Origin: Amphiscolops sp. MND2022
Taxonomy: Eukaryota
Direction: 5' to 3'
Assembly (NCBI GenBank): GCA_964187785.1
Contig: OZ076409.1
Location: forward strand, 22,880,001 to 22,944,000
DNA length: 64,000 nucleotides
The position numbers and the translations under genes are program-made. This document shows, one piece after another, positions 36,465 to 64,000 of this stretch; the stretch's first letter is position 1, and each line of letters opens with the position of its first letter. The notes beneath the pieces were generated by a model, which did not search any database, was not told the DNA's origin, and saw only the letters and a program-made list of their open reading frames with translations.

Positions 36465-36682
36465 AAACAACTGACAATCCCTGACTCATTACTAGTACTC
36501 AGAAAACAAATACAGAAGAAACTCTCTTTTTTATCCTTCCTTTTTCAAATCAGCACTACGAGTGCGTTTCTTCATCCTGTTCTCCGATTCCTTTAACAAA
36601 TAAATACACAGGATACAGAGTAACTCAACAATCAGAAAACTAAAAGAAGATTATAAATATAACAAGATAATGCAGACAACAG

Positions 36683-39600
36683 TCAGTTTTTCTTGCTTTT
36701 CGGAGCTTTAGCAACCACTCTCTTTGAAGTGCCCTCTTGGGTCGACTCTGAGCAACGACTAAGACTAACATTAAGTGTACCCAATGAAGGATCAGGGGAT
36801 GGGGAACTATGTACACTGCTGCGGCGACTCACACTTGGAGTTGTTGAAGTAGAGGAAACGGTAGTTTTCTCAGCACGTAGCACAGCTTGTCGGTAACCAG
36901 TTTCCAATTTACCTTGGAGAGAAGTTTTCCGGGCATTGCTTCCCTTCAGGAAATTCCAAACCGAGAACTTTTTGTCCAATAACAAATCAGTCCCACGTCC
37001 CAACAGGCGAAAAGCACGGCTGATCGCCTTGGAATTTCGAAATAAGCTGGAGACGTGTGGCACAGTCTGATATGCTACCTGAAGACTAAACACACAAGAT
37101 TCAAACGTATGTTTATCCGACTCAAGATCTGGCATAGGTACCTTGAATGATGGCGGTATTTCCACGAATGGAACTAAACAAAGACACGAATGTTTGAATA
37201 GTCGCATCAACTCGGGTCTACACTGGATTTCATAATGTTCAACGACAAACTGAATCCAATCATCATGCTCTGGTACGGGGCTTGTCCTCAGCTTGGTTAC
37301 GAAGGAACGATACTGGCTTATCTGCTTCACCTTGTCACTAGAAGAGAATAGTCCGGTAGAAACAAAATGTGAAGACAACTTTTCAATCGCATCAACATAC
37401 ACGTCTTCTGGGCTCTCGAGCATCACCGAGGAGTCAAAAGCAGAGAGTCCCCGCAACAACTTTGACTTTACAATCCCGTGACCCATCAACTGTTTGCAAT
37501 AAGCCTTGCAGAAACTCACTGACTGGTCAATAAAATTGCTTGGCCGAGGGAGTTTACTTGAATACACCAAACGGTGAAAATCCTCATTCAAGACGAAGTC
37601 GTCTGCTGTTTTAAACGGCAAATTAGTTGAATCCAGGTCCAAATTAAGATAAGAATCCCATTCCGAGATATTTCCCAAAATGCTGTCAGGAAGAATGTTC
37701 TGCATCTGACTGTAGATAAAAACCGCAAATTGGTTGTATATGCGGAACCCTCCATCAAGTCGTTTCTGTATGTCCGAAAACGCCGAAGTATCTAAAACAC
37801 ACAAAAATCATCTATTATAGAAACCACGCATGCCTTCATGAAGAAGAGAACTAATCACGCATAGTACACGCTTTTGATAAGCTTGATTAAACACATCATA
37901 TAGCTCAATGTATAAACACCAGGGCTATAGGGCTTTACGCGGTTCAGAGAACAATGAATACTCGACACTATGTTGAGTAGGAGATATTGACTATGCGGTC
38001 ACTATGCGGAACGAGTAGTAGTGATTATACGTCACTATGCGGAATCAGCAATGCAGCTGGATTTGGGAGTTCTGAGCAAATACGATTGGTCATACGCAAT
38101 TATGCGGATTGAGAACTGATGATTACTCGTGATTATTCAGAAGAAAACAAAAAGCACGTGTCACTTATGATGAGTTAAATGAATGACAATCCTGATGTTC
38201 GAAGTTTTGGAATGAGATGGTACTTATAGTACATTACTCCAAAAAGAGGAAAACAACGTAACAAAAGATGAAACCGCTGTTATAGTATAAAGATAAATTG
38301 ACTAACAATGGTCAAGGACACATCTGATAATGAACAGACGGGCCAGATAAGCTGTGTCTAGACGAAAACACTCGTCCAGCGTATTGGGCTGAAAGGGAAA
38401 AGATTAAGAAATGGATTCAGATTACAATGGAAGGAGCTGGGATAATAATACCTACCTCTCTCATATGGAATCGATAGATAGGAAGGCAGGCAACTTGTTC
38501 TAGGTGATCCTGCACGTGATTCCAGTTGTTGGAAAGCTGCTCAATCAAAGAAGAAGCTTCAGAAAGGGAATAGCTCAAGTTTGTCACACACTAAACAAAA
38601 TAGGGGAAGATGTGCAAAACATCACAATGGAAAAGAAAAAAACCAAAGTTGAAAACCTACTTTGTGCAGAAGGGGTAATTTCTCCAGCCAATCTCTGTCT
38701 AGCGCAGTCCGCAATTTCATCAGTAAATAATCCAAGATAGAACGAAAATCGTGTCGTTCTATGACCTGAGCGGTAGGGCCTGCTAATGTTCGCTCAAATT
38801 CGTTCGGTCCAAATGGGTTGACAGTCGAAGGGGGCTTTAATCCGGGCAAACAAGACGATAGACAATCATTTAATTTGTCACTGAATCCAATGAGGGATAC
38901 ACAATTTGGGAATGTTTCGAACAGACTGAGAAAGGAAGCCACGAGAGAAAGGACTTTCCTTGGTAATAACATTCCCCGAGGGGCGCCCCCTATGCACACT
39001 CGATACAGCACATTCTCGGCCCAAAAGCAAAGAATAACGTATGTGGCAACAGGAGTATGTTGTATGGCCAATGAATAGTACCCCGAAGAAGATATAGACC
39101 GTACACAATAGTCCATGAGTTCTCGGAACATGTAGACTATGATACCCTGCAAACAAAGAAAGTGTTAAGGTATTGGAAAATGGGGAAACCTTCAACTTAT
39201 AGTGTAACTTCAAGGTAATTGAAACTTTTAACGAAGGAGAAAGAATATGGTTAAATCATTGTGTGTTAAAAAATTCACAAAGAAACTTACGAAAAGACGT
39301 TCATTGCTCCAGTTCTGATACGATAGCCGATCACTTGCTGTAAGTCTGACCAACTCGTCATACATTCCGGTCAAACTGGCGACGTTACCTCCGTGCCTTA
39401 ACCCAAATTCCAGAATGTTTATCTGCGAGAATATCTTTTCAGTTGGGGTTGTGGAAGCACTAAAATCGGGTACTGAATCTTGTCCTACTAGAGGTCGGTA
39501 CGTATCCAATTGAGGAGGAATTGGGTAGGTGTCCTTCGCCTTCTTTTTGGCTTCCTGTAGTGAAATTCCAAGCAATTCATGTTCGTCTTTGTCGTAAAGG

Positions 39601-40994
39601 GGCATTCCTGGAATCTCCATGCGGATTCAGTGTTCCCTTACTAGGTGAGATTCGGACCTGTAATGGGATATCAGTTCCAGACTCCCACGACTCATCAACG
39701 ATAATTCAACACGGCACACCCTACACCACCACTTGTAAGGTGATAACTCTTGATCCAGTGGACCTGTGGCAGAGAATTTCAAAACTGGGTGTCTTTTAAA
39801 CATACTACCAGTTAAGGAGTATCTAGGGCGGCGTCGTTTCCCCCGTACTTCAGGGAGATTACGCTCTGAGTAAGTCGGCGCAGTTCTTGAAGTAGATTGG
39901 ACAAGTGCTTCTTCTTGGCTTGATGTAGTCAATAAAGCAGATTGCGGTACATCATCCACCAAAGTAAGTGCCATAGTGTCTCCACATCCAGTCTCTTCTC
40001 CGGTGATGAAGGCTTGTGGGATCCTCCCAAGGAAATTGTGGAGAAATAAGACCTCCTGTCGAGTTACACTAACATTGGGGAACTCTGATCTGGGAATGTT
40101 ACCCAAGCCTTCCGTGTCATGACCAATTGTTTGTCCTTGGTCATTAGCCGTGCTAAGAGAAACCGTGGTTTCGGGTATCTGCCCGGTAGTGAATCCTGTT
40201 GCACCATCCTCACTAGGAGTGACGTACTGTTCAAACTGAAGAGAATGTATTTGAGAATTACCCTGCGTGATGAAATCATCAAGTACCCCTTGAGGGAACG
40301 TCGTCATTGGCTCATTCATAGCTTTCGTTGGGGTAACGTTCACAAATGGCGGCGAATTACTTCGTGAAGCTAAATCCCCTTTTTGACTTGGGTTACCCTG
40401 GGAAGTAACTCCAGGAGGCTCTGTGGATGTATGTCCACTCGGTGGCTCACCTGCTACTTCTTCATTGATCTGCAAAGTTGGGGTATTGGGGGTATCCACT
40501 TCCTCTGTAGCCTTAGAAGTCTGTGGAGTCACAACGTTCAAAGATGTGTAGACTTTGGCAGGAGAGTTGTTTGAAGTGGTTTGGACGTTTTGGGACGATC
40601 CTTGTTCAACTGAAACAATTGATCTGTTGATTAACAAAAGAACAGATTTCACAAGCAATAACCGTTCTTAACTGCCTTGAACCGGACGCGGGGACAGGAA
40701 ATAAAATTGGAACGGAAGTTGTTTTAAAATTGGAAGCGGAAACGTTTCAAAAAATTTGAACTTGACAAAGATAATAATCTTGTCATTTTCTTTTTGCTAG
40801 CCTGGCCAGCTTTGCAAATCAACCAAATTCAAAACAAATCAAAATGAAACAGAATTAAAACGAAATACGTTGAACTTACGGGATGACGTCTCAGGCGGCG
40901 GATCACTGTGCCAGAAGTCGTCACGTTGCAGAGGATCATAACTCTTCCGGGATCTTCTTTTCCCTCCGGGGCTTCCCTCTTGTGGTGAATCCAT
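36683..40994 (-). CDS. Antisense six-exon gene, about 1081 aa, Zn finger plus hAT-transposase-like body; one in-frame TGA at 39627-39629
   Basis: Exons 40994-40880, 40609-39291, 39146-38661, 38590-38456, 38388-38307, 37791-36683. All five introns are GT..AG with pyrimidine tracts; phases 1,0,0,0,1 join in frame (3246 nt, 1082 codons). WWCRVC...LISHYRSESH motif. The last exons are homologous to element B. Confidence 0.82.
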
Positions 40995-42440
40995 TCTTTT
41001 TTACAGAACCAGGAAGTAATTCAGGAAAATTCTGATGCAAGCTCAGGGTATTTGTTCCAGAAGTGAACGAGGAGAAAATACAATAGATCAGAGTAAGGAA
41101 ATTGAAAACAGATAAAAGGGGAACTAAAGATGAAGAATCCAAGATTTGGAAGATTGTGTTTAATATACTAGAACTTTAACTGAACAGACTAAATGAACTG
41201 GTAAGAAACTTGAAGATTCAAAAGAAACAGTAAAAGGCGTGGCGTAACGTAAATGCAATAGACAAAGGCAAAAGAGCAAGTGAAACAATTGTGCGCAAAT
41301 ATGCGTAGAGAATACTGCAATATGATTGGCTGTTCAAATGTCAATTACGTCTGCCAGCGTAATTGATTGACTCATCTGACTTCTGCCAACAACGTTGGTA
41401 TACATATATGCTGAATGGAATGAATTAGAAAGCGAGAGTATGCGGCAGTATGCGGATCTACCACCAACGACCACTCGACAATATGCGTATTACTGATTTA
41501 AATTATGCGGCAGTATGCGGATCTACCAATGATGGATATACGGCAGTATGCGGATTGAGCATTGACGTATACTCGACATTTAGCGGTTTTCGCTGTATGC
41601 ACGACAGAGATGAATTAACACCGTAGACCAACAAGAATGAGCAAATGGAGTGATATTACGTAATGGAACTGAAGAAACTGTGTGTTTACCACAACTGAAA
41701 GTTGAGTGGCAATATTGATATACTGTATACGTGCTTAGTTACCCTCTTTAATGACGTTTAGCCTGTGATACCAATGCCCATTTGGAACCAATATGTATGT
41801 ATGTAATAATTTGAACTGTTGGCGTTTTCTGAAACCCATAAATCATTTACCAAGAGATACTGGAATTCACCCGGAACATTAATTAACTGTACTTGCATTT
41901 TAAATGCAGGACTAACATTATTGGGTGTCTTTCCTAATGATAAAATTCAACTCACTAACGGACCTTAGATTAGATTGGAACACGTTTATTAACATCCTTT
42001 TCCTTTTATAAAATAGTCATGTAAAATCAAATAAATTGATTCTGAATTACTTTATTGAATATTTTCATGAAAGTATTTTGTTTTCAGCATCCCTGATATC
42101 AAGTCAAATTTGTTTATGTACGATTTAAATACTGGTGGAAGGTTAAGAAGGGTGATGATAAAAGGAAATCAGTTGGAGTGCTAAACGTGTTACCTTTTAT
42201 GGAAGTTGTTTATGACCAATTGTAAAAGGAACTCGTGATATGAGTCTAGGTGGAAACCCCATGTAAGGGTGTTTAGGAACCTAAAATCATGACTCTCAAT
42301 TTTTCCGCGGGTTTTCCGCTGAAAACGAAAAGTGCGAGAAACTCCATCATCATATGGTCCATATTAAACTGTGATTCAGTTGCTTTCAATTTCGAACTCT
42401 ATTTCTGTTCATCTATAAATTTTCAACTAAAACCTGAAAA
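40995..42440. promoter_or_regulatory. Candidate internal bidirectional promoter region between the antisense gene and ORF X
   Basis: Non-coding interval between two divergent ATGs, with clustered TATGCGG / ACTCGACA motifs (41436-41590) also found in the LTR. Function is inferred. Confidence 0.5.
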
Positions 42441-43496
42441 ATGGACTCACTGCAATTTAATCTCGATGAGGATCTGGGCTACTCACCCATCTCCCCTGAC
42501 GTGATAGACATCTCCAGTGAATCTGGGGAAGAGTTCATTGTTGAACCTGGCAACATTGCCCAGCTAGACGAAAAGTTCAGGGTCAATACAATGGGATCAA
42601 ACATCATGACAGCTTTTGTGGGCTCTGCAACTGCTTCTTTGTTCCCCCCTTCAAACTACGTGGGACAACAAGAATCCATCAATACTGCAGGAACCCACAT
42701 CGAAAGGGAAATCATGGAGTTGATAGAGGAGGGCCCTTCCTCTTCTCCAGCATCTCCGCTGTCTTTCATCGATTCAGAATTCGAAGGACCGGGTACTTCT
42801 CCAGTAGCAATTGCCGCAGAACCCAGAGCACAGCTTAATAATTATGGTCGGCCAACTGCAGCAATACTGCCCACACCAAGGGTCCCATTGCAACCGCCAA
42901 ATGAAACTGTTAGACCAGTGCCGACTTACCCTTCAAACTATGTGCAGAATGTCCCTAATTCTCACCAAGCACAGACAGTGGACACAAGCACAGAAGGGGC
43001 TACTAACGTACCAACATATGAACTACAAGGAATTTATCCGCAAGCCGCATTCATCCCAGAAGAATTAACACACCCTGTTACGAATGACATTACACCAGTA
43101 GTGATACATCTGCCCCCTAGAAACATGGGAATTGTCCCCGCCAACTTCAATGGTCAATTCCACCAAGTAGTCCAAGCTGGATTTCCATTCAACATTCTAC
43201 ATAGTACTAACATCCTTATGATACCAGGCAATGAGAGACAAAATTTCAGATTGTTCCCAACAGTTATGCCAAACGTCTCCGGATATTGTGACTGGTGTGG
43301 CCGTACCTTTGATCAAGTCGCACTGGAAACATTGGGGGACTATCTTGGCGCTACCGCTTACAACGAGGAAACAGTCAGGGACCGTGGGGTGCGTTCTAGA
43401 GCCTTCATAGATGGTTTTGAAGCGGCGTTGTTTATCTTCAAAAATGCAGGTCTGTCGCGGCCACAGCGTTGCGATGGGTCCGGTGTGCACCAGTAA
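42441..43496 (+). CDS. ORF X, unknown accessory protein (351 aa), ends inside the 3' LTR
   Basis: ATG-initiated long ORF in AT-rich DNA: acidic/Ser N-terminus, Pro/Gln-rich middle, C-terminal CDWC...CDG region. No obvious signal peptide or TM helix. Confidence 0.75.
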   Translation: MDSLQFNLDEDLGYSPISPDVIDISSESGEEFIVEPGNIAQLDEKFRVNTMGSNIMTAFVGSATASLFPPSNYVGQQESINTAGTHIEREIMELIEEGPSSSPASPLSFIDSEFEGPGTSPVAIAAEPRAQLNNYGRPTAAILPTPRVPLQPPNETVRPVPTYPSNYVQNVPNSHQAQTVDTSTEGATNVPTYELQGIYPQAAFIPEELTHPVTNDITPVVIHLPPRNMGIVPANFNGQFHQVVQAGFPFNILHSTNILMIPGNERQNFRLFPTVMPNVSGYCDWCGRTFDQVALETLGDYLGATAYNEETVRDRGVRSRAFIDGFEAALFIFKNAGLSRPQRCDGSGVHQ

Positions 43497-44973
43497 GAAA
43501 ACAAACAACGCTTGTTAAAAACTTCCAAAACCCAAGGACTCATTTGCAAGTCATGTAGTTTGTTTGTTTTGTAAATATTTGTTGTAATCAGGGTCATTTA
43601 GTTGATTTATTTTGTAAAACTGATGTCTTAAAATGATTTGCCAAACCTTAAGAGGATTTAATGATGTTTTTAATTATTCCTGATGATCCTAATGCAGTGC
43701 TAATAGTTCATTTTAATTAAGCAGTACCAATTGTATACGACATTGTGCGTTTTGAGTGCTAATGAGTATGCGGTACTATGCGCATATGCATCTTTCTGAT
43801 TTTCATTATGCGTCACTATGCGGTTTGAACAGTGACATTTACTCGACACTATGCATCTTTCTAACTTTCATTATACGTCACTATGCGGTTTGAACAGTGA
43901 CATTTACTCGACACTATGCATTTTTCATTATACGTCATCCTGCGGTCTGAGGAACAATGAGTGCTCGGTACTATACGTTTTTCGCTATGCTTGCTTTAAT
44001 ATGAAGGATTAACTTTGCATTTCCATATACAGTAGTATAAGTCCATGATATATCATTGTTTAACACCTTTCTAGGGTATTATAAACCTCGTTATCATTTC
44101 TGAATGTCATGGAAGGTAACTCATGAGATATAAATAGGATGACGACATTCTGACGAAGTGCTATTATTAGTTTTTCCTAAGAATGATGCTTGTAAAATTG
44201 CGTGTCATCTTTTGTAATTTTGTACTTTCTTGGGGAAAAAGGAGCTAACACAACTGATATAACTTTCTTCAGAACCAGTTTGTTCTCTGATAACGATTAC
44301 AATTTTTGTGCTACATTTTGGGATCTTTGAACATTTCAAATTGATTTCCTTTGAATATTTGCCTTCAATTCAAATTCTTGACCCTGCAAAACAATCATTT
44401 TCTCTTGAGCGAAAATGGGCAATAAGAGAAGTAGAAGGTCTAGAAGACTAGAAACTCCTTCCCCTAGCAGAGAAGAAGGTGTTGAAACTCCAAACCCAGG
44501 TAATATGACTTTAACTAATTCTAACTTAGTTGACCAAGAAAACTTAGGTCCCAATATCTTGGAGAATCAAATAACTGAACCCAGCGTAATTAGCAATGAA
44601 ATACAAGTTTGGACACAAGAAATGGAAAAGAGAAACAATGACAGAATAGAGAAGATGAGGGAAGAGATTGATAATAAATTCGATGCAATCTTAAGAGAAA
44701 TCAAAACTAGTAAAAATGCATCTACAATCACAAACCCAAGATCAGAATCTAATGAAACACAAAACAATCAGCCGTCGGGATCCAGAAATAGGTCTATAGG
44801 AGTTCGCGCATCAGAAAATGAAAACTCTGATTCTGAAAATGAAGATAATCATCCCATCAGAGCATCGAACATGCATGAATTAAGAGACCCAGCAAGACCC
44901 TTTTGCCAAAATAGATTTGAACTAGATGAAACATTAGTTCCAAATGAAGACTCTGAGGAGGAGGATTATCACA
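43453..44973 (+). repeat. Element A 3' LTR (contains a second copy of the gag leader ORF 44415-44996)
   Basis: Direct repeat of 28937-30457, followed by TSD GCTGT. Confidence 0.97.
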
Positions 44974-47968: not shown

Positions 47969-50900
47969 TGTGTAGAGGACATACGAACTTACTTAGACTG
48001 TAGAAACTAATTAGTTTGCTTCCCTATTTGTATATATTTATTTATTAATACTTGATTAAAGTACCAGCCCTGTCACATAAGCGCAGAAGAAGCTATACGC
48101 TTAGTGATACAAAAGAATAGTGAAAAACAGCTAAATTTTAAAACATTGAGTTTGAGTTCCTTCTCTTTACGAGTATATCAGGAATACAACATGGCGCAGT
48201 CAGAATAACGATCAAAGTTACAAAAGATCATTGCGAAAGCCTAATGGGCGACAACACAAACGCCACCCAAAGGAGGCACCAACATTACGTCGGTGGAATT
48301 ACAACTAAGTGAACAACTGCTACCAAACGACACGATGAACCGAACCGCAGAACGGAGAAGCACCCAGAAGCTTACCAATCCAACACTGGAAAAGAAAGGC
48401 TCCACCAATGTGGTAGTGGAAGTTTGTACAAAATATAAAAATGACAAAGGACCTAGACCTATCAACAAAGACAAACAATTAGGAAATACTGCCACAATTC
48501 CGTGATCAATTAGAAACAGAGATGAAAGACAATATTCTGTGGGCAATTGGACAGAATGCTATCACGGAACTGACCAAAACGGTTAGAGATAGAGTGAGAG
48601 AGCCGAGCTCACTACCGTTGTACAAATTACATACATCATTCCGACTACATTTCACACCGGAGAGAAACGTTCAACACAGTACAGCCGACTTTTCGACTTG
48701 AAACGGAAAGACGGAGAGTCCGCGGCAGACGTCCGGAAGTGGATATTGGAAGTAGATAAAAACTGCAAATTCGAGACAATAACCGCAGAAGAACTCTTGG
48801 CATCAATATTCCTATCCGTAATCGGCAAATCGATAGGAGACTACGACTAAAGAAAAAAATCAGAAAAAGTGACATGTCGGTGGAGGGAATTACCGAAGCA
48901 TTACATGAGTACATGTACGAAAAACAAAACGACTCACCAGAAACAATATGAGAAGAAAATCCGATATCTCAATAAAAGAAAGACCAGAAGCACCAAAAAC
49001 CAACGGATAAACCGGGTAATTTCAAGAAACCAGACTGCTATAGATCCGGAGCCTCCAACTGGTTACGAAATCATGAAGAATAAGCTAGGGGAAGGAATGT
49101 TCGCGAATTGTTGCAGAACAAACAAAAGAATAAACCGCATACAATAACAGGAAACAAGTAGTGCGGAAGAAGACTATTGGTCACCGTCACAACACAATCC
49201 ATTCCGAAAATCAGAAGATCCATTCAACACGCCCAATGAAGAAGGACGGTCCGGAATTCTTCACTCTCACCGACAGCGGATTACCGGTAATTTTGATACC
49301 GAATTCACGGTTTAACAAAATAACAACATTGAAGCCGCTTGAAACCGAACATAGAGATGTAAATGACAACGGGATGAGGTTCGAAGGAAAATCGCAAAAG
49401 TAGAAAAAGATGGGAAACAAAAAATGTTGAAAATCCTGATAACGATAAAAAAACCAACTCACTATTAGGCTTAGCTTAGACTGGATGGGAAAATTGGGAA
49501 TAACGCTGGGTACTGGTAAAACCGATCCACGAATAAATTACATAACTGAAGATCCGGACATAACAGTACTCAAAAAAAAGTTCAAAATGTTTTCGTTGGA
49601 AATCACACCGTAAAGGACTCGAAGTACAGATACCATTAAAAGAGGACGCAAGACTGATACAGCAAAAAGGAAGGCCAATACCAAATCACCTACAGCAATT
49701 GGTCGGAAAGAAAGTGACAAATTAATGAAACAAGGCCATATCGCGAAAACAAATAGCATTGATGAAATTTGCTTTGGTAGCACGGCCGTAATCAATGTTA
49801 AGAAGGACACGTCGAGAAAAACTACTCTGGTTTCGCGAAAGTTGAATGAAATCACCAAAATGAGAAAGGCACAAACGCCTTACAAGGAGGAATTTTTTTC
49901 CAGAATTTCCAGAACGATTGTGGAACAATCGGCAAATGAAATATGGATATCAAAGTTTGATTTGGACTACGCTTGCGGGCAACTACTATTGTCCAGGAAG
50001 CCTGAAAACTGTGCATATTTGCCGTAACCGGTGGACATTTTACAATTACTACCGTTTCCTGAAAAGATTTTACGGGTAGCGGATATTCCGACAATTTTTC
50101 AGGAGACAATCGACCAAACACTGGAGAACTTTCATCTGGCATGGTTGTATGACATAATCGTCGGAACAAAGGGCTCACAAAAACAACACAAAAAAGAGTT
50201 AGTAGACGTTTTAACCTGACTAGAAATAGCTGGATAGAGCCTCAGCGAAAACAAATCCGAATTTTTCAAAACAGAGATTGAATGGATTGGCCATAAACTA
50301 GACCAAAACGGAATCAGATCACTACAGGACAAGCTGATGGCAGTTAAAGATTTGAAACATCCCAATAACGAGAAAGAACTCAAATAGTTTCTGGGGGCCA
50401 TCCAATATCTGTACAATTAGATAAACAAACGGATAGTCTGAGACAACTTCTTAAAAAGATACCGAATGGTTATGTACAGAATAACACACGCAAGCGTTCG
50501 AAAATCTCAAACAAATGATCAAGGAGTACTCATGTGTCGTAACTACAACTCAGATTATCCAAAAGTTATAACAAACGACGTCAGCACTAAAGGCCTCGGT
50601 GCAACGCTTTGGAAAGAACAGCTGGACGGAAAGCTAGAATCAATCGGTTTTGCAAACCGATTTTGATCAGATACCAAGAAAATATGCAATAAACAAACTC
50701 GAATTGCTAGTCATTGTCTGGGGACTAGAACATTGTCGTTTAAACATTTACGGCAAACCGATAGAAATGCTCACGGATCATCACGCACAAGAACCACTGA
50801 TAAAACGAAACCGGTATAACAAAACGTATAGCGCACAGCTAACGAGTTGGCTGGACCGATTAGCACATTTCACCATTAATGTGAACCAGATCGCAGGCAA

Positions 50901-53900
50901 GCATCTAGCGCTCACGAATTACTTGAGAAGAAATCCGTCAGCACCGCTACAAACAGACGACGCGTACGACGAAGAATGCGTCATCATTAACACCTTACCG
51001 CATTACCGAAGTTCATTTCCAAACACGGTTGCCTTAGCAACCACGTCGACTAATCTGAATGAGGAACGAACGAATATGATGAACGCAAAATAAACAACGA
51101 ACCACGGCCACAACACGCGCGTGAACAAACCCCTATTGACTGCCTTAACAGAATAACATTCACACACAACTTGACAGTTGACAATCTTGCAGCCATAGAT
51201 TCATCAGCCGAAACTACACAATTGATCCAAAGATGGAAAAAGATCGTGAAACTCGGAATGTATCGCATTACCGGAGGAAAACGGAAGCAATGACACGTGC
51301 CAAAATTACGGAATGAAATGAGAGTAATCGAGGTGAGATTACAACAAATAATCCGGGGCCGTGAACGAGGAGACTTGAGGCAAAGAATTGGTCCTCAACA
51401 CAGCGGAGGCTTTCAAACCCAAACAAGACGGTCGGAGCAATTGACGGTAGACCCCTTCTGGGAAATGGACCGACCGTCACCGGCCCGACAACAAGACATG
51501 CCAGGACCGTCATCAGCCACAACGAGTCCAGAGCAGTACGCCCCAACGCCGATAGAAGAAGGCGAATTCAACACGCCCAATGAAGAAGGACGGTCCGGAA
51601 TTCTTCACTCTCACCGACAGCGGATTACCGGTAATTTTGATACCGAATTCACGGTTTAACAAAATAACAACATTGAAGCCGCTTGAAACCGAACATAGAG
51701 ATGTAAATGACAACGGGATGAGGTTCGAAGGAAAATCGCAAAAGTAGAAAAAGATGGGAAACAGAAAATGTTGAAAATCCTGATAACGACAAAAAAACCG
51801 ACTCACTTATAGGCTTAGCTTAGACTGGATGGGAAAATTGGGAATAACGCTGGGTACTGGTAAAACCGATCCACGAATAAATTACATAACTGAAGATCCG
51901 GACATAACAGTACTCAAAAAAAAGTTCAAAATGTTTTCGTTGGAAATCACACCGTAAAGGACTCGAAGTACAGATACCATTGAAAGAGGACGCAAGACTG
52001 ATACAGCAAAAAGGAAGGCCAATACCAAATCACCTACAGCAATTGGTCGGAAAGAAAGTGACAAATTAATGAAACAAGGCCATATCGCGAAAACAAATAG
52101 CATTGATGAAATTTGCTTTGGTAGCACGGCCGTAATCAATGTTAAGAAGGACACGTCGAGAAAAACTACTCTGGTTTCGCGAAAGTTGAATGAAATCACC
52201 AAAATGAGAAAGGCACAAACGCCTTACAAGGAGGAATTTTTTTCCAGAATTTCCAGAACGATTGTGGAACAATCGGCAAATGAAATATGGATATCAAAGT
52301 TTGATTTGGACTACGCTTGCGGGCAACTACTATTGTCCAGGAAGCCTGAAAACTGTGCATATTTGCCGTAACCGGTGGACATTTTACAATTACTACCGTT
52401 TCCTGAAAAGATTTTACGGGTAGCGGATATTCCGACAATTTTTCAGGAGACAATCGACCAAACACTGGAGAACTTTCATCTGGCATGGTTGTATGACATA
52501 ATCGTCGGAACAAAGGGCTCACAAAAACAACACAAAAAAGAGTTAGTAGACGTTTTAACCTGACTAGAAATAGCTGGATAGAGCCTCAGCGAAAACAAAT
52601 CCGAATTTTTCAAAACAGAGATTGAATGGATTGGCCATAAACTAGACCAAAACGGAATCAGATCACTACAGGACAAGCTGATGGCAGTTAAAGATTTGAA
52701 ACATCCCAATAACGAGAAAGAACTCAAATAGTTTCTGGGGGCCATCCAATATCTGTACAATTAGATAAACAAACGGATAGTCTGAGACAACTTCTTAAAA
52801 AGATACCGAATGGTTATGTACAGAATAACACACGCAAGCGTTCGAAAATCTCAAACAAATGATCAAGGAGTACTCATGTGTCGTAACTACAACTCAGATT
52901 ATCCAAAAGTTATAACAAACGACGTCAGCACTAAAGGCCTCGGTGCAACGCTTTGGAAAGAACAGCTGGACGGAAAGCTAGAATCAATCGGTTTTGCAAA
53001 CCGATTTTGATCAGATACCAAGAAAATATGCAATAAACAAACTCGAATTGCTAGTCATTGTCTGGGGACTAGAACATTGTCGTTTAAACATTTACGGCAA
53101 ACCGATAGAAATGCTCACGGATCATCACGCACAAGAACCACTGATAAAACGAAACCGGTATAACAAAACGTATAGCGCACAGCTAACGAGTTGGCTGGAC
53201 CGATTAGCACATTTCACCATTAATGTGAACCAGATCGCAGGCAAGCATCTAGCGCTCACGAATTACTTGAGAAGAAATCCGTCAGCACCGCTACAAACAG
53301 ACGACGCGTACGACGAAGAATGCGTCATCATTAACACCTTACCGCATTACCGAAGTTCATTTCCAAACACGGTTGCCTTAGCAACCACGTCGACTAATCT
53401 GAATGAGGAACGAACGAATATGATGAACGCAAAATAAACAACGAACCACGGCCACAACACGCGCGTGAACAAACCCCTATTGACTGCCTTAACAGAATAA
53501 CATTCACACACAACTTGACAGTTGACAATCTTGCAGCCATAGATTCATCAGCCGAAACTACACAATTGATCCAAAGATGGAAAAAGATCGTGAAACTCGG
53601 AATGTATCGCATTACCGGAGGAAAACGGAAGCAATGACACGTGCCAAAATTACGGAATGAAATGAGAGTAATCGAGGTGAGATTACAACAAATAATCCGG
53701 GGCCGTGAACGAGGAGACTTGAGGCAAAGAATTGGTCCTCAACACAGCGGAGGCTTTCAAACCCAAACAAGACGGTCGGAGCAATTGACGGTAGACCCCT
53801 TCTGGGAAATGGACCGACCGTCACCGGCCCGACAACAAGACATGCCAGGACCGTCATCAGCCACAACGAGTCCAGAGCAGTACGCCCCAACGCCGATAGA

Positions 53901-54749
53901 AGAAGGCGAATTCAACACGCCCAATGAAGAAGGACGGTCCGGAATTCTTCACTCTCACCGACAGCGGATTACCGGTAATTTTGATACCGAATTCACGGTT
54001 TAACAAAATAACAACATTGAAGCCGCTTGAAACCGAACATAGAGATGTAAATGACAACGGGATGAGGTTCGAAGGAAAATCGCAAAAGTAGAAAAAGATG
54101 GGAAACAGAAAATGTTGAAAATCCTGATAACGACAAAAAAACCGACTCACTTATAGGCTTAGCTTAGACTGGATGGGAAAATTGGGAATAACGCTGGGTA
54201 CTGGTAAAACCGATCCACGAATAAATTACATAACTGAAGATCCGGACATAACAGTACTCAAAAAAAAGTTCAAAATGTTTTCATTGGAAATCACACCGTA
54301 AAGGACTCGAAGTAGAGATACCATTGAAAGAGGACGCAAGACTGATACAGCAAAAAGGAAGGCCAATACCAATTCACCTACAGCAATTGGTCGGAAAGAA
54401 AGTGACAAATTAATGAAACAAGGCCATATCGCGAAAACAAATAGCATTCATGAAATTTGCTTTGGTAGCACGGCCGTAATCAATGTTAAGAAGGACACGT
54501 CGAGAAAAACTACTCTGGTTTCGCGATTACCGCATTACCGAAGTTCATTTCCAAACACGGTTGCCTTAGCAACCACGTCGACTAATCTGAATGCGGAACG
54601 AACGAATATGATGAACGCAAAACAAACAACGAACCACGGCCACAACACGCGCGTGAACAAACCCCTATTAACCGCATTAACAGAATAACATTCACACACA
54701 TCTTTTCAAATTCACAAATTCCAAAAAGCACCAAACTTATAATGGATTG
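47969..54749 (+). mobile_element. Decayed Ty3/Gypsy element with short 5' LTR (about 47969-48191), interrupted at 54750 by element B
   Basis: TG...CAACA followed by PBS-like TGGCGCAGTC at 48192; RT remnants (SKFDLDYA, WLYDII) and RNase H remnants (NDVSTKGLGATL, ELLVIVWGLEH, LTDH) broken by stops and frameshifts. Confidence 0.8.
49222..54700 (+). repeat. Tandem amplification, 2344-bp unit: 49222-51565, 51566-53909, and an internally deleted third copy from 53910
   Basis: Identical ORFs offset by 2344. The junction GAAGAAGGCGA|ATTCAACACG occurs twice. The third copy lacks about 1156 bp after 54526. Confidence 0.95.
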
Positions 54750-56309
54750 TGTCCCAGGCGTCCGCCTGTGATGGCAACACATACTCAATCTGCCATAGCT
54801 ACAAGAAAGCAGAACCCTTCACCCTTCCATTAAATTAGAAAACTTACAAGGAAAACTATTATTGTTGCTCTAAAAAGTCATGTAAAACTCTATATATTTC
54901 ATTTTGTGCAAGTTATATTATGTAATTCTATGCATTAATACGAGTTAATTGGACACCAAGGCGTACAGGTAAAGGAAACGCGTTCAAATGTTTTCTTGCC
55001 TGTCGCCTTGGTCCGCAAGTCCGACTAACTCGTCATCCAATCATAGCGCAGTGTTATGTAACCTTTACTCGTGCTGGCTTAATAGAATTAAAAGACTAGA
55101 CGGCTATATGCCGCCTGCTAATAAAGCGCTGGGCTGTACCAGTCTATTGGACACTGAGTCCGCGCTTTAATTGAGAGTGCTATTCTATCTAGCAGTACTG
55201 GTTATGTAATAATTAATCTTTTGATAGCTAATAAAAGGCGCTATTAGTCCTCAAAGGACTGATTTAATATTTTAGACTTAGTTTGATGGTGTTGCTTTAT
55301 ATGTAATTTGCGCGATATATTTAGAATATATGTAAAATTACCATCTATACATGTAATAAGCATTTCATACATGTAATATGTATTTCATACATGTAGCACG
55401 TTGATTAGTATGCATGTAAGCAGTTACTTGTCCTAACGGACTCATGGTCCCACCGCCATATTTGCCGCCAAGAGGGACCTTTGATCTACATGATGTAATG
55501 TTGACGTTGCCTGCTATTTATAGATTGTAGCTATATTTAGAAAGCCTTTAAGGCTATTTTTAGATTATGACCACCATTTTATTGAGTGTCATGCAAATTC
55601 AAATATATATAACCGGGACTGGTGGGCTCGGGGACAGAATTAACCTGATGATACTTTGATGTGTTACTGTTGCGAATTGTTTATTAAAACTACCCGTTCA
55701 TTTTCACTTTGCAAGCCCAAGATATTAATTTAAATTCTTGCCTCTTGCAATAATCTCTTATGCCTTCCACTAGACGACAGAAAGCCAAAGCTAGGAGATC
55801 TAGAGAAATGGACATACTGTCCGACTATGATAACCTAGATGTGATGCTGGGAAATGAAAATAACAATCCCATTGAAAGAGAGCTAGCTGAAGCAATAGAT
55901 CAGTCATCGGCCCACGGGGACGGTGATACGAACGTGTACCATGAAAATGAGTTTAGAGGTTACTTACATGAAAATGAACCTTTGAGACAAAACGAAGTCA
56001 GGCAATCCTTTGAAGCCTTTTCAAGTGAGTTTAATCTTAGATTGTCTCAAGAAATGGAATCTATGATGTCAATAATGCATAGCCAAATAAATAGGGCTAT
56101 ATCGACAGCTATAGCTGAAAGAGTTATTCCAGAAATCCAGAATATTGCAAACTCGATGTCCTCTATGGGACACAGGGACACTGAGGCCAGTTCGTCTCCA
56201 AATAGTCAGGAGAACAGGGAAAGCGCACCCGGGCCTAAAATAAAAATTGCAAAGAAAGATTCAAGATCTGTAGGAGATTTAAGAGATACCATGGGTCATG
56301 GTTCTTACA
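54750..56309 (+). repeat. Element B 5' LTR (inferred, about 1560 bp)
   Basis: Ends TTACA before the PBS. The start TGTCCCAGGCGTCCGCCTGTGATGGC parallels TGTCGCGGCCACAGCGTTGCGATGGG of A. The partner LTR is outside the window. Confidence 0.7.
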
Positions 56310-57448
56310 TGGTGACAGGAGCTACCGACACCCAACCGCAAATTCCCGAATTTCTGACCGGACGAATCCACTCAATCCCGAACCTAGAGAGACAACAATC
56401 TACCCACAATATCTCTCTGGACACGACTCTGCCAGCCCCGGCCCCAGAGGCTCCTGAACCTCCTCAGGACCCGTTTAATAGATTAGCCGACGTATTGGTC
56501 AATTTGCAAAACAAACCGCAATCTATGACCATCAGACCCGTACAAACAACCCCGATGACATTTGATGGGAAAAGTGAGAAATTTGAGCTCTTTGAGGACT
56601 TGTTCCATACGATGATCAAAATGCAGCCCACAATGACAGAACAAATGAAAATTAATCACTTTCATTCTTTGCTACGAAAGGGAGCATTACAGACATTCAG
56701 GAACATAAACTCAATCAACCGTCAAACTCTCGAGGACGTACTGGTCATATTCCGGAGGAAATATGTCAAACCGGAATCACAAGCAACGGCAAAGCATAAA
56801 TGGCACCGATTGACCTTCGATCCAAGTACAATGAAACTACCAGACTTCTTGGAAGAACTGAACCAAGGTGCAGAAAAAGCATTTGGGGAAAACGCTAAAA
56901 GCATGATTGACAGCTTGTTATACGCGAAATTACCCCCAAAACTGAAACGATCTGTCAACATGGCCCGTCTGGAGAACGGCACGTATGAAGAAATAGTCGC
57001 TCATCTTGAAAGAGAACTGGAACTCAATGCATTAGAAGAGTCAGATGATCTGCCAATGGCCACTATGGCCTCGGCGTCCACGAGCCATAACAATTTACTG
57101 TCCAATGGCATCAACACAAATAAAGACGCCCAATGCTCATACTGCAAGGCGACGGGTCACTATTACAAAAGCTGCCCGAAACTCAAGAAGAAAAAGGAAA
57201 CGGAGGACAAAGACGGTAAAAAACCTCAGCGTCCAACTTACCCACTGTGTGACACATGTGGCAAAAAGAACCATCCAACCGAAAGGTGCTGGCAAGGCGC
57301 TGGCGCCCACCTGCGACCTAAAAGGATGCAGACAGAACAAAATGACCGAAATGCTATAGACTCCGAAGGAAAGCCTAAAAAAGCAAATGACTCAGAAACG
57401 GCTACTTCAAGCCAATCCAATACTAAAAAATCTGATTCAAAAAACTAA
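55760..57448 (+). CDS. gag: Gag polyprotein (562 aa), starting inside the LTR
   Basis: Homologous to the element A Gag; CSYCKATGHYYKSC and CDTCGKKNHPTERC knuckles; ends at slippery A_AAA_AAC (57439-57445) plus TAA. Confidence 0.93.
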   Translation: MPSTRRQKAKARRSREMDILSDYDNLDVMLGNENNNPIERELAEAIDQSSAHGDGDTNVYHENEFRGYLHENEPLRQNEVRQSFEAFSSEFNLRLSQEMESMMSIMHSQINRAISTAIAERVIPEIQNIANSMSSMGHRDTEASSSPNSQENRESAPGPKIKIAKKDSRSVGDLRDTMGHGSYMVTGATDTQPQIPEFLTGRIHSIPNLERQQSTHNISLDTTLPAPAPEAPEPPQDPFNRLADVLVNLQNKPQSMTIRPVQTTPMTFDGKSEKFELFEDLFHTMIKMQPTMTEQMKINHFHSLLRKGALQTFRNINSINRQTLEDVLVIFRRKYVKPESQATAKHKWHRLTFDPSTMKLPDFLEELNQGAEKAFGENAKSMIDSLLYAKLPPKLKRSVNMARLENGTYEEIVAHLERELELNALEESDDLPMATMASASTSHNNLLSNGINTNKDAQCSYCKATGHYYKSCPKLKKKKETEDKDGKKPQRPTYPLCDTCGKKNHPTERCWQGAGAHLRPKRMQTEQNDRNAIDSEGKPKKANDSETATSSQSNTKKSDSKN

Positions 57449-60400
57449 TTTTGCCACGACTCCAAATACATGACTACATGTCGGTTCGACAATATGTCAT
57501 TTCAGATCCTCCAATAATCAAATACAGCCAAACAATCAAGGATACAAAAGGAATGCCCACTGTTGTCTGGCAGCAACAAATGGAAAAAGCCTGTATCCGA
57601 ACTTATAAAATAGTATATAATGATCGCCCAGACCGATTTTACGAAATAGACTATACCAAAGACTTTGAGACTCAATTCCGTCCCTTACCCCTGATCGAAG
57701 ATTATCACCCTCAATACCTCGATCCTGATTACGGCAAAGACCCGTATTGGGACGACGAACTCTACGACAGACAAAAACTCCAGTTTAGACAAGACGAATA
57801 TCCACCAACGGACGATGAGGATGATCCCCCGATAGTGGACAACAAACTATCCAGAGCCCTCATTGAACTTTGGCAGCCAAATTCCGAAGCACTTTTAGAA
57901 GAAATAGAGGAAACTCAAGAACAAGAAGACTTTCAAGGCCCCGATAGCCTTTTAGACGAAACAGCCTTCTTGCACATTTTAGTGGAAAAACAAGGAGAAC
58001 CGTCATACGTTCCCCTTTCCACCAACCTTGGCCTCAAAATCAAAAGGAGGATGCTATATTTCCCAATGGACTTTGGAGAACTAACATTAGATGGTCTCAT
58101 AGACACTGGGGCCCACTCCAGTGCGATACCAGAAGCTGACCTTAGGAAAATACGGCTACTTGCACCCCAATCAATAGTGAAAGAGGGTCCTGCCCCGTCA
58201 TTCCAAATTATGGTCCAATGTGATGGAACCTATCCTCAACCCCGAGGATACAACGATTCCCCCAAATGGACGCACAATCATCCCTATCCAATCTCAAATT
58301 TATGCAGAAAACGCTGTCACTGGAATCTTACAACCCAGTGACCTTCTAAATGAAGAAAATGATATAACATTTTGTGCCGCCATAGTCACATTGGACGAAG
58401 GGACTACGAGGATCCATGTCAACAACTTCACAGATCAGCCCTTTAAACTCAAAAAAGGGATGCACATAGCGAATTTCTCTGTGATGACTCCAGAGCAAAT
58501 GAAGCACGTTAGGCCAATAGACCCAGTGTCCACTTGGCACCTACTCAATGAAAATGAAGAAGACGCTATTTATTATATCAGCAGTCTTCTCAAAGCCAAC
58601 AGGAACAATGACCAATATGAACAATACTGGTTTCCAACACCCGAAAACCCAGGGGACGAAGAGTCCCATACTCCAATACAAAAGAGAATTCTTAGAGAAT
58701 TACGAAACCTGCAAGAAGCAGAAAAACTCAACCCACAAGACAATGAAGAATCTCGACAAAAATTCCTCAGTAACTTTGACTGGAAGGACTCAATGCTACA
58801 ACAGCATGAAATCAAACAGATAGAAGCGCTATTAGTCGAATTTCACGACATATTTGCCCGTCATAGGTTTGACATCGGTATGAATGAGGAGTTCACGGTC
58901 AAATTGACCCCGAAGGACGACTCTCCTGCCTACAGCCAGAGCTTACCAACTCCGGTCAATTTAAAAGAGGACATACTGGTCGAATTAGCGTCACTACACA
59001 AATATGGAATTATAACAACATTACCATTCTCAAAGTACGCTAGCCCTATCTTTGCACAAAAGAAGCCTAATGGGAAACTACGACTACTGGTAGACCTCAG
59101 GAAGATCAACAATCTTATTTCTGATGATTATATCAACAACAACCATCCAGTCAGCACCTTAACGGACGCTGCTCAACATATGGCCGGAAAGAAACTTTTC
59201 TGTAAACTTGACTGTTCGCAAGCGTACCACTGCCTTCAAATGGCGGACCAACGGTCTATAGAGATGTTGGCCTTCAACTTTGCCAGCCGAACGTTCGCAT
59301 ATCGAAGATTGGCCCAAGGTCTCAGCAGAGCCTTATCGGCATTCTCCAGTTTTATGAGAGAATATTTGGACCGTGTCATCAAAGCCGATCAATGTGCCCA
59401 ATACGTGGACGATATTGGCATTGCAGCCAACGACGCGGAGCATCTCATTAAAAATCTCAGAGCAACTTTCGAATGCATCCGAGAGGCTGGATTGAAATTA
59501 ACGATGCATAAATGCCACTTTGGAGCAACTGAGATTGACTTCTTAGGAAGGACAATCACCCCTGAGGGTGTCAAGCCCCAGAAGGAACGAGTCACACAAT
59601 TCCTAGAAAAAACGAAATTCCCAAAATCCAAAAAAGCCTTACAACGTTACCTCGGATTCCTCAATTATTATAGAAACTACATACCGAGATTATCAGAAAA
59701 ATTAGTCCCTTTCTTTCAACTATTAAAGAAAGACGAAAAGGTCTTAGTCACAACGGAACTGATCGAACAATTCAACGAGATCAATAGAGATTTGGACAGA
59801 TGCACCCAGCTAGCCCTTAGGCAGCCCTTGCCAAATCGACAGCTAGTCCTGATGACAGATGCTAGCTTTACAGCAGCCGGATATGCTATACTTACTGAAG
59901 ATGATCCAAATCAGAAATTTACCTCAACCAAGAAATCCTATGCGCCTATTGCATATGGTTCAAAAACTTTTACTCCTTCACAACTTAAAATGTCAATTTA
60001 TGCGAAGGAATTCTTAGCCATCTATTACGCCTTCAAAGAATTTGGACATATATTCTGGGGCACACCTAAGCCGGTGATTATCCTCACAGATAACAAATCG
60101 GTCACAAGGTTCTTCCAGACTAAAATAATACCGCCGCCATTATGGAACGCGTGTGACTTTGTCATTCAGTTCAATTTCACTATAGCGCACATTCCAGGCA
60201 AAAACAACACAGCGGCGGACTACCTGTCCCGCATGGAAATGGACCCCACTGAAAAGTTAGTCCTAAAAATCCGAGCGGACGTTGAAACCCAACCCATTGA
60301 AGTCAATGTCCAATCAGCCGGCGTGTCTGAAGAAGAACAAGTGTTCTTTACCGAAGAAGACAATGAAACAGAAGAACAAATTTGGGAAAGGAAAAGACAA

Positions 60401-62377
60401 TCAAAAGCAGGACTCAAGGTCGACGAGACCGTCATCCAAATAGATACTATATCTGAAAATGTAGTGGATGAAATTACCAATTTCACCCAGAAACTACGTA
60501 GAACCAACCAAATACTACTAGAACAATCCAAAGATCCGATTTTGCTTCATTTAAAAGCAAAAATTCAAAATGAAGAATACTCTGAGGAAATCCTTCAGCA
60601 GGACAGCCGGTATAAACATTATTTAAATAATTTAGACCGTATAGTCCTCAAGGACGAAATAGTGACCCGACAGTATTACGACGAAACGGGACAAATCAAA
60701 TACCACCAAATCTTACTACCAAAGCACCTGTTGAAAGAACTACTGCAAGCAATACATGGCACGGCACATCGACATCCTGGCATCTCTAAAATGCTGCAAG
60801 AGATCCGCCAAAAATATTACTACCCTGGCATAGCAAAATACGTTAAAAAATGGGTAGAGGGATGCGAAACGTGCGCTAGAGACAAAAGAGTCCCAAATAA
60901 TACAATTACACCAGAATTGTTGAACTTGCCCGAATGGGACCTTGGTCCAGAAGATGCCATGCAGATAGACTTATTACCAAACTTACCGACTAGTGGCGGA
61001 TACCAGACGGTGATGACAGCTATAGATGTATTCTCAAGGTACTTATTCGCCTACCCGCTAATTGAGGCAACAGCCACGAATGTAGCCAAGGTGATAATTG
61101 ATATCATGACGAAACATTCATATTTACCAACAACTCTCATCACAGACAAAGGGTCCGCATTTACATCGACCATCATAGCTGAGATAACTCAAATTTTGGG
61201 TATAACACTCAAATGTGCTACTACAAAGCACCCGCAAACAATTGGCAAACTCGAAAGGACGCATGCCTCACTCAAAACAAATTTGAAAATGGCCTCAGGG
61301 GAATATCGACGCCAATGGCATAAATATTTACCATTAGCAGTACTCAACTACAATACCACATACCACTCTAGTATTGGATGTGAACCGAGTAAAGTCTTCC
61401 ATGGCCGGATTCCCTATAACGTCCTAGACCACAAATTGGGAAATAACCCCAATAAAAATTTTTTGCCAACTACAGAATTTGCGGAGGAAGTACAGCAGAG
61501 GACACAAATCCTCATAGATCAAACGAAAAAGAACATCATGCAGTCTTATTTGAAATATAAGGACTATTACGACCGAAAGGCAAAGGCTGCCCCGCTTAAA
61601 GAAAAGGACTATTGTTTTGTTCTACAACCTAAAGCGGACAGTCAAGCATCAAAAATTCCATTCAAGGAATACAGGTGGATTGGACCATTCGTCATTCAAA
61701 AAGTACTGTCCAACGACAATTATATTGTCCGTCGTCTAAATACAAATAAAACTCAAATACTTCATCGCATTAGACTAAAGAAATTCGTCCCGAATGCCCC
61801 TTTAGAGGACAAATACGATGGAGAAAAACTACAACCCGACAATGAGATAGTAATCCCGCAAGACGATTTGTACACTATCTCATGGGAAGTAGACTTTGAG
61901 TACGACTTATTTGAACCGAGGAAGGAAAATTGGACAGACGTGGCCACACGCCGGCCGACGGACGCCGAGTCCACTAATACGGACAATGACGTTACCGACG
62001 AGGAAAGCACTATCAATGAAAGCTGCAGCGAGCGCACGACAAGAAATTACGTCACCGAGAACGAACGCGTCAGCAATGAAAGTTACAATGAGCGTACGAC
62101 AGAATATGACGTTACCGAGGACGAAATATCCCCGAGAGAGAACAATAGCAGTGACGAACCGTCCCCCCCGACTCAAACGTCACAGCGCACTGAGAATGAA
62201 AATGACGTCACTAATGATTTACAAGATACGGAAAACGTTTCAAACAAAGGCGCAGATATTACCGTGCCCGGAATATCAAAAAATGGAAATTCAAATGAAA
62301 ATTCGAGCCCTAGAGGAGGGAAATACAATCTTCGACCTAACCCTACCCCCAACTTTACTGATGAATACAGATACTAG
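57439..62377 (+). pseudogene. pol: pol, disrupted by a frameshifting deletion in the protease near 58214; RT, RNase H and integrase frame intact
   Basis: LIDTGA...FQIMV jumps to SNVMEP in another frame; about 70-75 codons present in element A are missing. YVDD, TDASF and integrase motifs are intact in 58220-62377. Confidence 0.9.
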
Positions 62378-62613: not shown

Positions 62614-64000
62614 TTAAGATTTAGAAGTTCCAGGAGCGTTTGCATCACTGGACTTTGCGGCTTCAGTCTCACCAGCTGCCCGAAAGCCAACTTTCTTGCC
62701 TTTACCAGGGGACAGCTTACGTTGTTTCCCCCCTTCTTTGGACGAGGAATTGGAAGCGGACTCGATGTCAGGACGGACACTCTTGCCCAGAGCCTTGTAG
62801 ACTGCAATTAAAGTTTTATGCAAATTAGCCTTGCCGAAACTGTCTACGTGTGACCAAGGGTCTCCTGGGACGTTGCCAATACTGAATCGGAACTCCAGAT
62901 CTTTGAAGGTGCCCAGGGAAGCTTCTGTAGTGCACACAGCCACTGAATTAGCCACATTAGCTAGGTAAGACTGTGCAGGCATGATGACATCGAAAAGTCT
63001 ACTTCGGGGATCATTACAGTCAACTCCAGAGAATTTGATGGCTGGAAGCTCTGGCAACTTAGAAGTCAGGCACAGACAACTCAACTGGAAGATGTAGAAC
63101 AGATGTTTCCGCAACTTCAATTCAGGCATACCAATCAGAAAGGCTACCATGTCGGTGAAGACCTCTGGGGTATCCTTGACTCCAGAGTTGGCTTGGCGGA
63201 AGAACTCCACGAAATCGATGTACTCGTCTCGGGCATCAGTCTCTGGGGAATTCTCTAACCAGCCTCGCAAACTAAAGGATCTGTACAGAGCGGAGAAACA
63301 GTATGTGGCTTGCTCAAGCGGCAGACTCAGGAGGGCTACTGGATCGAAACTGCCCAGACCTCTTACGATACCGGCATTCAAGCTAATGTCGGCCAGGAAG
63401 ACTTTCAAAAGGTGGACGAGGTAACCTCGGGCCTTGGTGGCGAAATCGTCCCGAAGGGCCTCAGCTGCTGTCTCCGTCTCTTCAGGCGTCAGTTGCTTCT
63501 CGCTATAAATTCTCCTGACGCGAGCATGGCATGCGGCATCCAAATTTTCTTTGAGCTTCAAGCGACTCAAGAAATCTCGATTAGACAGTTGTCGCCAATT
63601 CTGTCCTTGCAAATCTCCCAGCGACTTCCAGTCCAGAATATCAGGCACGTGTCTGGGAAGTAGTGCTCGACCTGCCAACTTGCGAATGAAAGTATGGAAC
63701 TCTCGGAAGGTGTAGAAGCCACTATCCCTTCGTTGCGCAAACTGACTCTCGAAGCTCTTGGTGTCTGGAAAACAAAACATTACCATCCTGAAGGGTCTTT
63801 ATGAAACCATTAGACCTAGCATGTCAATCTACTATATCTAGCATGAGCCTCAAATAGTGGTAAGACAAACTGGGACCATGAGGTCCGTAGACAAGAGAAA
63901 AACAATATACTAACAATCGCGGACAATTCGTGCGAAGAACTCCAGCTTGATGGTGAAGAAATCATCAGCTATGATTTCCCACTCGAGGCTTTGGGGCTTG
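62614..64000 (-). CDS. Last two exons of the antisense gene of element B (64000 or beyond to 63915, and 63764-62614)
   Basis: RGLGSFD and FQLSCLCL match RGLSAFD and FKHSCLCL of A. Intron 63914-63765 is GTTAGT...TTTTCCAG, phase 1, at the same position as intron 5 of A. Confidence 0.85.

Follow-up and report, generated by a model that had tools for sequence, protein, structure and literature searches.

An intron-containing antisense gene, probably derived from a hAT transposase, in an abundant Gypsy retrotransposon family of Amphiscolops

Introduction

Plant and fungal Gypsy elements are known that carry an antisense gene between pol and the 3′ LTR (PMC7264820, PMC11963269, PMC8365987), examples being gene23 of maize Grande, TRP28/Transposase_28 of Retand, RIRE2 of rice, and brtn of Botrytis Boty (PMC7264820, PMC11963269). 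The Grande gene is described as having its own promoter and a nuclear product for which a regulatory role was proposed, and the Retand domain bears the name of a transposase (PMC7264820, PMC11963269); TRP28 is reported there from flowering plants only (PMC11963269). The plant and fungal ORFs are presented as lacking similarity to other transposable elements (TEs) and as being of unknown origin (PMC7264820), and where such extra antisense ORFs of LTR retrotransposons come from and what they do are both treated as open questions (PMC7264820, PMC11963269). Giant and modular animal elements are described with other extra genes (PMC6431247, PMC5408684), and the LTR elements of bdelloid rotifers with modular extra ORFs and with a dUTPase between protease and reverse transcriptase (RT), a position called rare among retrotransposons (PMC5408684). 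The targets of VANC proteins are described as carrying a dense short motif, in one orientation, in introns, intergenic DNA, and terminal non-coding DNA (PMC5735166, PMC6719617), and TE-encoded counter-silencing is said to be documented mainly in plants (PMC6719617).

Here, we compare these systems with a Gypsy family from Amphiscolops sp. MND2022. The analysis started from a window of 64,000 nucleotides (contig OZ076409.1, positions 22,880,001 to 22,944,000, forward strand). Positions are those of the window, except where they are given in L013, a stretch reaching beyond it, to whose positions 62000 is added to obtain window numbering.

Results

Both Gypsy elements of the window, A and B, lie on the forward strand and are recent insertions. 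Element B (15,382 bp) is bounded by LTRs of 1560 bp that differ by 1 mismatch, the 5′ LTR at 54750 to 56309 (TG...CA, taking in the first ∼183 gag codons) with the target site duplication (TSD) GATTG just upstream and the 3′ LTR at L013:6572-8131 with GATTG following. Element A (28937 to 44973; 16,037 bp) has LTRs of 1521 bp with 5 mismatches and the TSD GCTGT. Direct TG...CA LTRs with a short TSD in both elements, as well as the Pfam domain order gag, PR-RT-RH-IN, are those of Ty3/Gypsy. A PBS-like TGG tract is present in A and B (in B, the PBS-like TGGTGACAGGAGCT abuts the 5′ LTR within the gag ORF), and a clear purine tract (PPT) is seen in B, a weak one in A. In element B, gag spans 55754 to 57448, and pol (57436 to 62377) encodes protease, a dUTPase-like domain, RT, RNase H, and integrase; this pol consists of two frames, with the break placed in the protease region by comparison with the single frame of 1642 amino acids (aa) in A. 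Both copies are damaged, B by this split and A by a stop in antisense exon 1.

The LTRs reach ∼183 codons into gag (55754 to 56309, 29893 to 30457, and L013:7576-8131), so the PBS-like tract falls inside the gag frame and a truncated gag ends each 3′ LTR. The dUTPase-like domain of element B is found between protease and RT (58241 to 58490; Pfam E 3e-5). A second accessory ORF, ORF X, lies on the sense strand and has a conserved CxxC...helical C terminus. It occupies L013:5542-6660 in B and 42438 to 43496 in A (352 aa, its C terminus homologous to that of B), terminates inside the LTR in both elements, was detected in 37 of the 40 further copies described below, and matches no Pfam family. Elsewhere in the window, a shorter LTR-type element at 23714 to 27207 has direct repeats 90 to 93% identical around RT and integrase frames, and tandem 2344-bp repeats with an RNase H fragment (49213 to 54704) adjoin element B on its upstream side. 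Copies spaced ∼14 kb apart at C9:14566428-14623317, C11:38662439-38692071, and C5:3368640-3398013 of this genome (G000) suggest tandem element arrays with common LTRs.

Between pol and the 3′ LTR, element B carries on the reverse strand a gene of four exons and ∼1,209 codons. Exon 1 (L013:2771-4546; 592 aa) encodes a low-complexity region, a basic cluster, and a C2H2 finger. It is followed by an intron of 85 nt, exon 2 (L013:2200-2685; 162 aa, with a predicted RNase H-like fold), an intron of 68 nt, exon 3 (217 nt, L013:1915-2131, with 63915 to 64000 inside the window), an intron of 150 nt at site I4 (63765 to 63914; phase 1, GTTAGT...CCAG), and a helical, stop-free last exon (62614 to 63764; 1151 nt, 382 aa). 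The gene of element A (36683 to 40667, reverse strand) has exons at 40667 (open frame) to 39291, 39146 to 38661, 38590 to 38456, 38388 to 38307, and 37791 to 36683, the last also stop-free (1109 nt), with I4 at 37792 to 38306 (515 nt, GTTAGT...TTAG).

A preliminary description of the window, made from its letters, had noted that a phase-1 intron with donor GTTAGT splits a tyrosine codon T|AY in both elements, at lengths of 150 and 515 nt. This is exact: B reads IVRD-Y-TKSF across T|AC (donor GCGATT|GTTAGT, acceptor ...TTCCAG|AC), and A reads LDH-Y-TSAF across T|AT. The description was also right that the stop-free last exons exceed 1.1 kb and lie tail-to-tail with pol, from whose stops they end about 220 to 240 nt away. 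The upstream exons, the CxxC...H...H finger, the ORF X homologue, the 3′ LTR, and the TSD GATTG that it predicted past the window are all present in L013. The alignment of the two last exons, which it had set as a check, is significant (E 7e-13; 24% identity over 250 columns), and with Pol 58% identical between A and B, the gene is indeed more diverged than Pol, as claimed.

All three introns of B match introns of A in position and phase, and exon 3 of B corresponds to the 135-nt and 82-nt exons of A fused, with intron I3 precisely absent. Across 42 elements, junctions extrapolated from the exon alignments have GT/AG at 312 of 319 ends, compared with 140 of 1908 (7%) and 23 of 1920 (1%) for controls offset by 1 to 6 nt. 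Where I4 is present, the codon is split T|AY in 39 of 40 elements and the donor is GT in 40 of 40 (GTTAGT in 27 of 40). The length of I4 ranges from 65 to 755 nt, and exon 2 measures 486 nt in 36 of 41 elements. I3 is precisely missing in the family of B (6 elements, exons fused in frame), and I4 is precisely missing in L040 (C4:57555810-57565809), again with an in-frame fusion, which makes a second independent intron loss. The splice sites are predicted from sequence, and these precise losses indirectly support their use and suggest that a spliced antisense copy recombined back into the element. The in-frame stop of A (39627 to 39629) is private, with 14 of 14 other A-clade copies reading through. 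We regard the existence of the antisense gene as virtually certain. Copies related to L040, with 405-aa frames, may have the same I4 loss, and a short frame with a basic cluster and a GTAAGT donor at 40880 to 41000 (reverse strand), read by eye, is a possible extra upstream exon in A.

To sample the family, we fetched 40 further copies from own-genome searches, chosen for diversity and favouring stop-free last exons. The searches scored at least 133 copies of the gene near B and at least 133 near A, with 133 scored copies at 89 to 100% identity. RT is found on the strand opposite the gene, at the distance expected, in 37 of the 40 fetched copies (one partial); as these copies were picked by their antisense gene, the figure describes them and not pol copies in general. 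The counts bear out the view that the gene is no one-off capture, and its presence in clades with RT-integrase only 64% identical bears out that it is old. Its position opposite RT in most fetched copies agrees with the class of antisense additional ORFs (aORFs) between pol and the 3′ LTR. Seventeen of the 42 elements have a single-frame RT-integrase segment together with all exon pieces open, and 14 failed the filter for all exons open. The LTR family carrying the gene is abundant and recently active. No longer, full-length relatives were found at E ≤ 0.01 among 7998 candidates, which is weak evidence, and metagenome scans returned no locus for divergent relatives. With the query used, nothing close to P0167 or P0168 was found in this genome at E ≤ 1e-70 and 1e-60, respectively, which hints at other host species.

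The protein is predicted to have the domain order C2H2 finger, RNase H-like exon 2, and helical exon 4. The finger residues C42, C45, H62, and H68 are invariant in 29 of 29 sequences. Pfam C2H2 models match the finger below threshold only, and its Atlas neighbors include clusters with zf-BED (10% of members) and zf-C2H2_12 (76 to 82%), at an Atlas recognition of 2168, below the mark of 2300. Within superclades, no other part is as conserved as the finger, which differs from one superclade to another. For the exon 2 model (pLDDT 67), the top matches are RNase H-like folds, with Hermes first in Foldseek (E 0.003); by Z, Hermes ranks 37th, behind kinases and other RNase H-like folds and tied with many, and in another structure comparison it is outside the top 50. 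The exon is predicted to have an RNase H-like fold. The model of the last exon of B (pLDDT ∼67) aligns with Hermes residues 360 to 606 at a middling fold score; Foldseek with the exon 4 model gave no match, and Atlas gave no usable match for exon 4. The three segments independently lean toward hAT, in collinear order.

No catalytic triad was recognized: no core column has D or E at ≥70%, and among 27 sequences the strand-1 end is Q in 11, E in 10, and A in 6, and the strand-4 end is G in 22, N in 3, and D in 2, in a register set by comparing secondary structure and the hAT ORFs found in this genome. Neither a CxxH nor a TRW motif is conserved. At the sequence level, exons 2 and 4 have no Pfam match (including Dimer_Tnp_hAT and DUF4371), and PDB searches gave nothing under E 0.3. 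Comparisons by hhalign with two hAT alignments, made from the genome's own hATs and 53 database hATs of the DUF4371/Dimer_Tnp_hAT type, reached E 0.045 to 0.5, which is not significant beside reversed controls at 0.15 to 0.57; the best exon 4 profile alignment is collinear with hAT, also without significance. HMM searches across 577 ORFs at hAT loci of this genome were likewise not significant, and since searches of the genome for PF14291 and PF18658 gave no match, no donor was found there. Several intronless hAT ORFs (L070 to L075; 496 to 697 aa) with DDE-type, CxxH-type, and TRW motifs occur in the genome, none of them close to the antisense gene. We consider it likely that the antisense protein is a catalytically dead derivative of a hAT transposase, an origin absent from the preliminary description.

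For four unsaturated pairs (two of which use element B), dN/dS over the aligned core, which leaves out the low-complexity N terminus, is 0.046 to 0.073 for the antisense gene (upper bootstrap bound 0.11) and 0.015 to 0.086 for pol. The antisense value is at most 3 to 4 times that of pol and in one pair is lower. These values uphold the earlier claim that the gene is selected; for the aligned core, they reject positive selection. Over the A split, identity is 21.5% in the antisense core and 63.9% in pol (66 pairs), so the core changes faster than pol over long times, yet under purifying selection. The pol and antisense trees, whose congruence had been proposed as a check, agree in setting clade A apart from the remaining elements, but their full topologies do not: each alignment rejects the topology of the other (AU p 1.9e-5 and 7e-15). 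In L020/L025, pol is 99%, the LTR 98%, and the antisense protein 73% identical, with corresponding values of 99, 93, and 50% in L044/L051 and 98, 95, and 71% in L050/L051. The converse is seen in L020/L021 (pol 99%, antisense 98%, LTR 71%). In sliding windows, identity drops from ∼98% to ∼60% at the end of pol and, in L044/L050/L051, returns to 92 to 96% at ORF X. These steps indicate that pol, the antisense cassette, and the LTR reassort as modules by recombination within a clade. Antisense synonymous sites are saturated where pol dS is ≤0.11, so much of the divergence among elements with near-identical pol reflects age and exchange of old cassettes rather than accelerated amino-acid change. 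The earlier suggestion of a fast-evolving gene that fits host conflict therefore mostly fails.

A k-mer scan yielded the motif TATRCG, picked after the data were seen, which in clade A is ∼10-fold enriched and >90% on one strand in the LTR, the antisense introns, and the intergenic gap. It is enriched neither in clade-A pol nor in 21 non-A elements. In element A, one array lies inside antisense intron I4 (37992 to 38106, forward strand) and others, on the same strand, at 29218 to 29461 (5′ LTR), 41300 to 41731 (intergenic), and 43734 to 43977 (3′ LTR). It is exactly in clade A that I4 is several times longer. In the B family, CATGTA is repeated in the LTR only (26 vs 2.9, taken over the LTRs of five elements), and the gap holds about two copies of CGTGGC; element B has no multi-compartment arrays. 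TATACGTCA resembles a host bZIP site, and the motif arrays could be host factor sites. Strict coinheritance of cassette and LTR is rejected, given cassettes 50 to 73% identical on LTRs 93 to 98% identical, which also speaks against a one-to-one fit of the lock-and-key kind. CpG is not depleted in the flanking DNA (CpG o/e 1.03), weakening a version of the regulation based on DNA methylation.

Discussion

The antisense ORFs of plant and fungal Gypsy elements, among them the spliced brtn of Botrytis Boty, share with this family a conserved antisense gene in the interval between pol and the 3′ LTR; here, the gene in addition keeps introns at four conserved sites, has a predicted architecture like that of an entire hAT protein, is accompanied by a sense ORF X, and is swapped as a cassette. 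In this predicted architecture, the protein resembles hAT proteins (Hermes; ZBED, FAM200, and GTF2IRD2 types), with a putative finger, RNase H-like core, helical insertion, and C-terminal region following one another as they do there, but it lacks conserved DDE, CxxH, and TRW and has a long low-complexity N terminus. Unlike in hAT-derived host proteins, the co-opter is a retrotransposon. With HTLV-1 HBZ and HTLV-2 APH-2, nuclear antisense regulators, the family shares an accessory gene in the 3′ part; the proteins are unrelated. The ORF3s described for bdelloid elements are esterases, exonucleases, or env-like and also unrelated (PMC5408684). As with VANC of VANDAL, a TE accessory gene is accompanied, in clade A, by a motif layout like that of VANC21 targets (PMC5735166). 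Same-orientation, family-specific arrays in non-coding DNA were found in clade A only, the element is of Class I, and its flanks show no CpG depletion; the likeness to VANC lies in motif layout, with binding and demethylation suggested by analogy. Searches of the open-access literature brought up no report of a Gypsy element with a spliced antisense hAT-derived gene.

These features can be joined into a proposed mechanism. An intron-bearing hAT-type gene would have entered the interval between pol and the 3′ LTR in reverse orientation, which would keep its introns in the genomic RNA, unseen by the spliceosome, and so explain their survival through reverse transcription. A promoter of its own, situated in the gap ahead of ORF X, probably drives transcription of the gene, whose RNA would then be spliced, and the precise intron losses suggest that a spliced copy occasionally recombined back. 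Catalysis appears to have been lost along with conserved acidic residues, with the zinc finger, a basic NLS-like cluster, and the predicted fold kept. The protein would then bind same-strand motif arrays in the non-coding DNA of the element, TATRCG in clade A and, as candidates, CATGTA/CGTGGC in the clade of B, while pol, cassette, and LTR are reassorted by within-clade recombination. The chances appear even that the protein is a nuclear, sequence-specific DNA-binding trans-regulator of its own element; its sign (activator or anti-silencer) and a link to silencing are predicted by analogy. More tentatively, and with the odds against it, the retrotransposon may have domesticated a DNA transposase to make a factor that recognizes the element's sequence and activates it or counters its silencing. 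This would be a counterpart of VANC of animal type and in a Class I element; dead-hAT cassettes would be swapped allele-like between near-identical Gypsy chassis, and target-motif arrays would expand even within the gene's intron.

The same gene, of the same origin, might instead restrain the element, as an HBZ-like repressor or by copy-number control, or antisense RNA might share this job. We hold this to be unlikely: the anatomy and the DNA-binding inference would be identical, and convergent transcription toward pol could form double-stranded RNA, a possibility raised in PMC7264820, but young and very numerous insertions (1 and 5 LTR mismatches; 133 scored copies at 89 to 100%) suit a promoting role equally well or better, and a dN/dS of ∼0.05 means that the protein matters, too, and not RNA alone. 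Similarly doubtful is a protein that serves integration (tethering, nuclear import, or target-site choice) or acts as a scaffold, with the arrays being sites of host transcription factors. A transposase-derived scaffold with a basic cluster would suit this, cassettes function beside different LTRs, and dispersed arrays are missing from element B; however, the expansion of the clade-A intron with same-strand motifs would be left unexplained, and the gene swaps freely against integrase.

The version of the preliminary description, in which the gene evolves fast and its product opposes a host defence protein in an arms race, we consider quite unlikely. The low identity across the A split relative to pol and the coexistence of many old cassette types on chassis that are nearly identical, a possible sign of frequency-dependent selection, speak for it, but the low dN/dS of the aligned core and the saturated synonymous sites on similar pol point to age and exchange. 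That the gene is real but goes back to some other DDE transposase, or to a host gene that was captured and encodes an RNase H-like fold, is improbable: the hAT link is not significant at the sequence level and many RNase H-like folds tie with Hermes, but three collinear segments independently lean toward hAT. A neutral passenger (a decaying nested insertion) or chance splice signals, to which broken individual copies such as A with its stop and the 14 of 42 failing the exon filter might seem to point, are refuted by the conservation of junctions and exon lengths and by strong purifying selection that persists over saturated divergence.

With the probable hAT derivation, this family offers a concrete origin for an antisense ORF, in which a Class I element would have co-opted an enzyme of Class II. 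It also provides a named candidate binding motif, natural chimeras in which pol, cassette, and LTR are separated from one another, and introns that were lost precisely. As a highly amplified family in a 1-Gb intron-bearing genome, it is a testable case that would widen the concept of counter-silencing.
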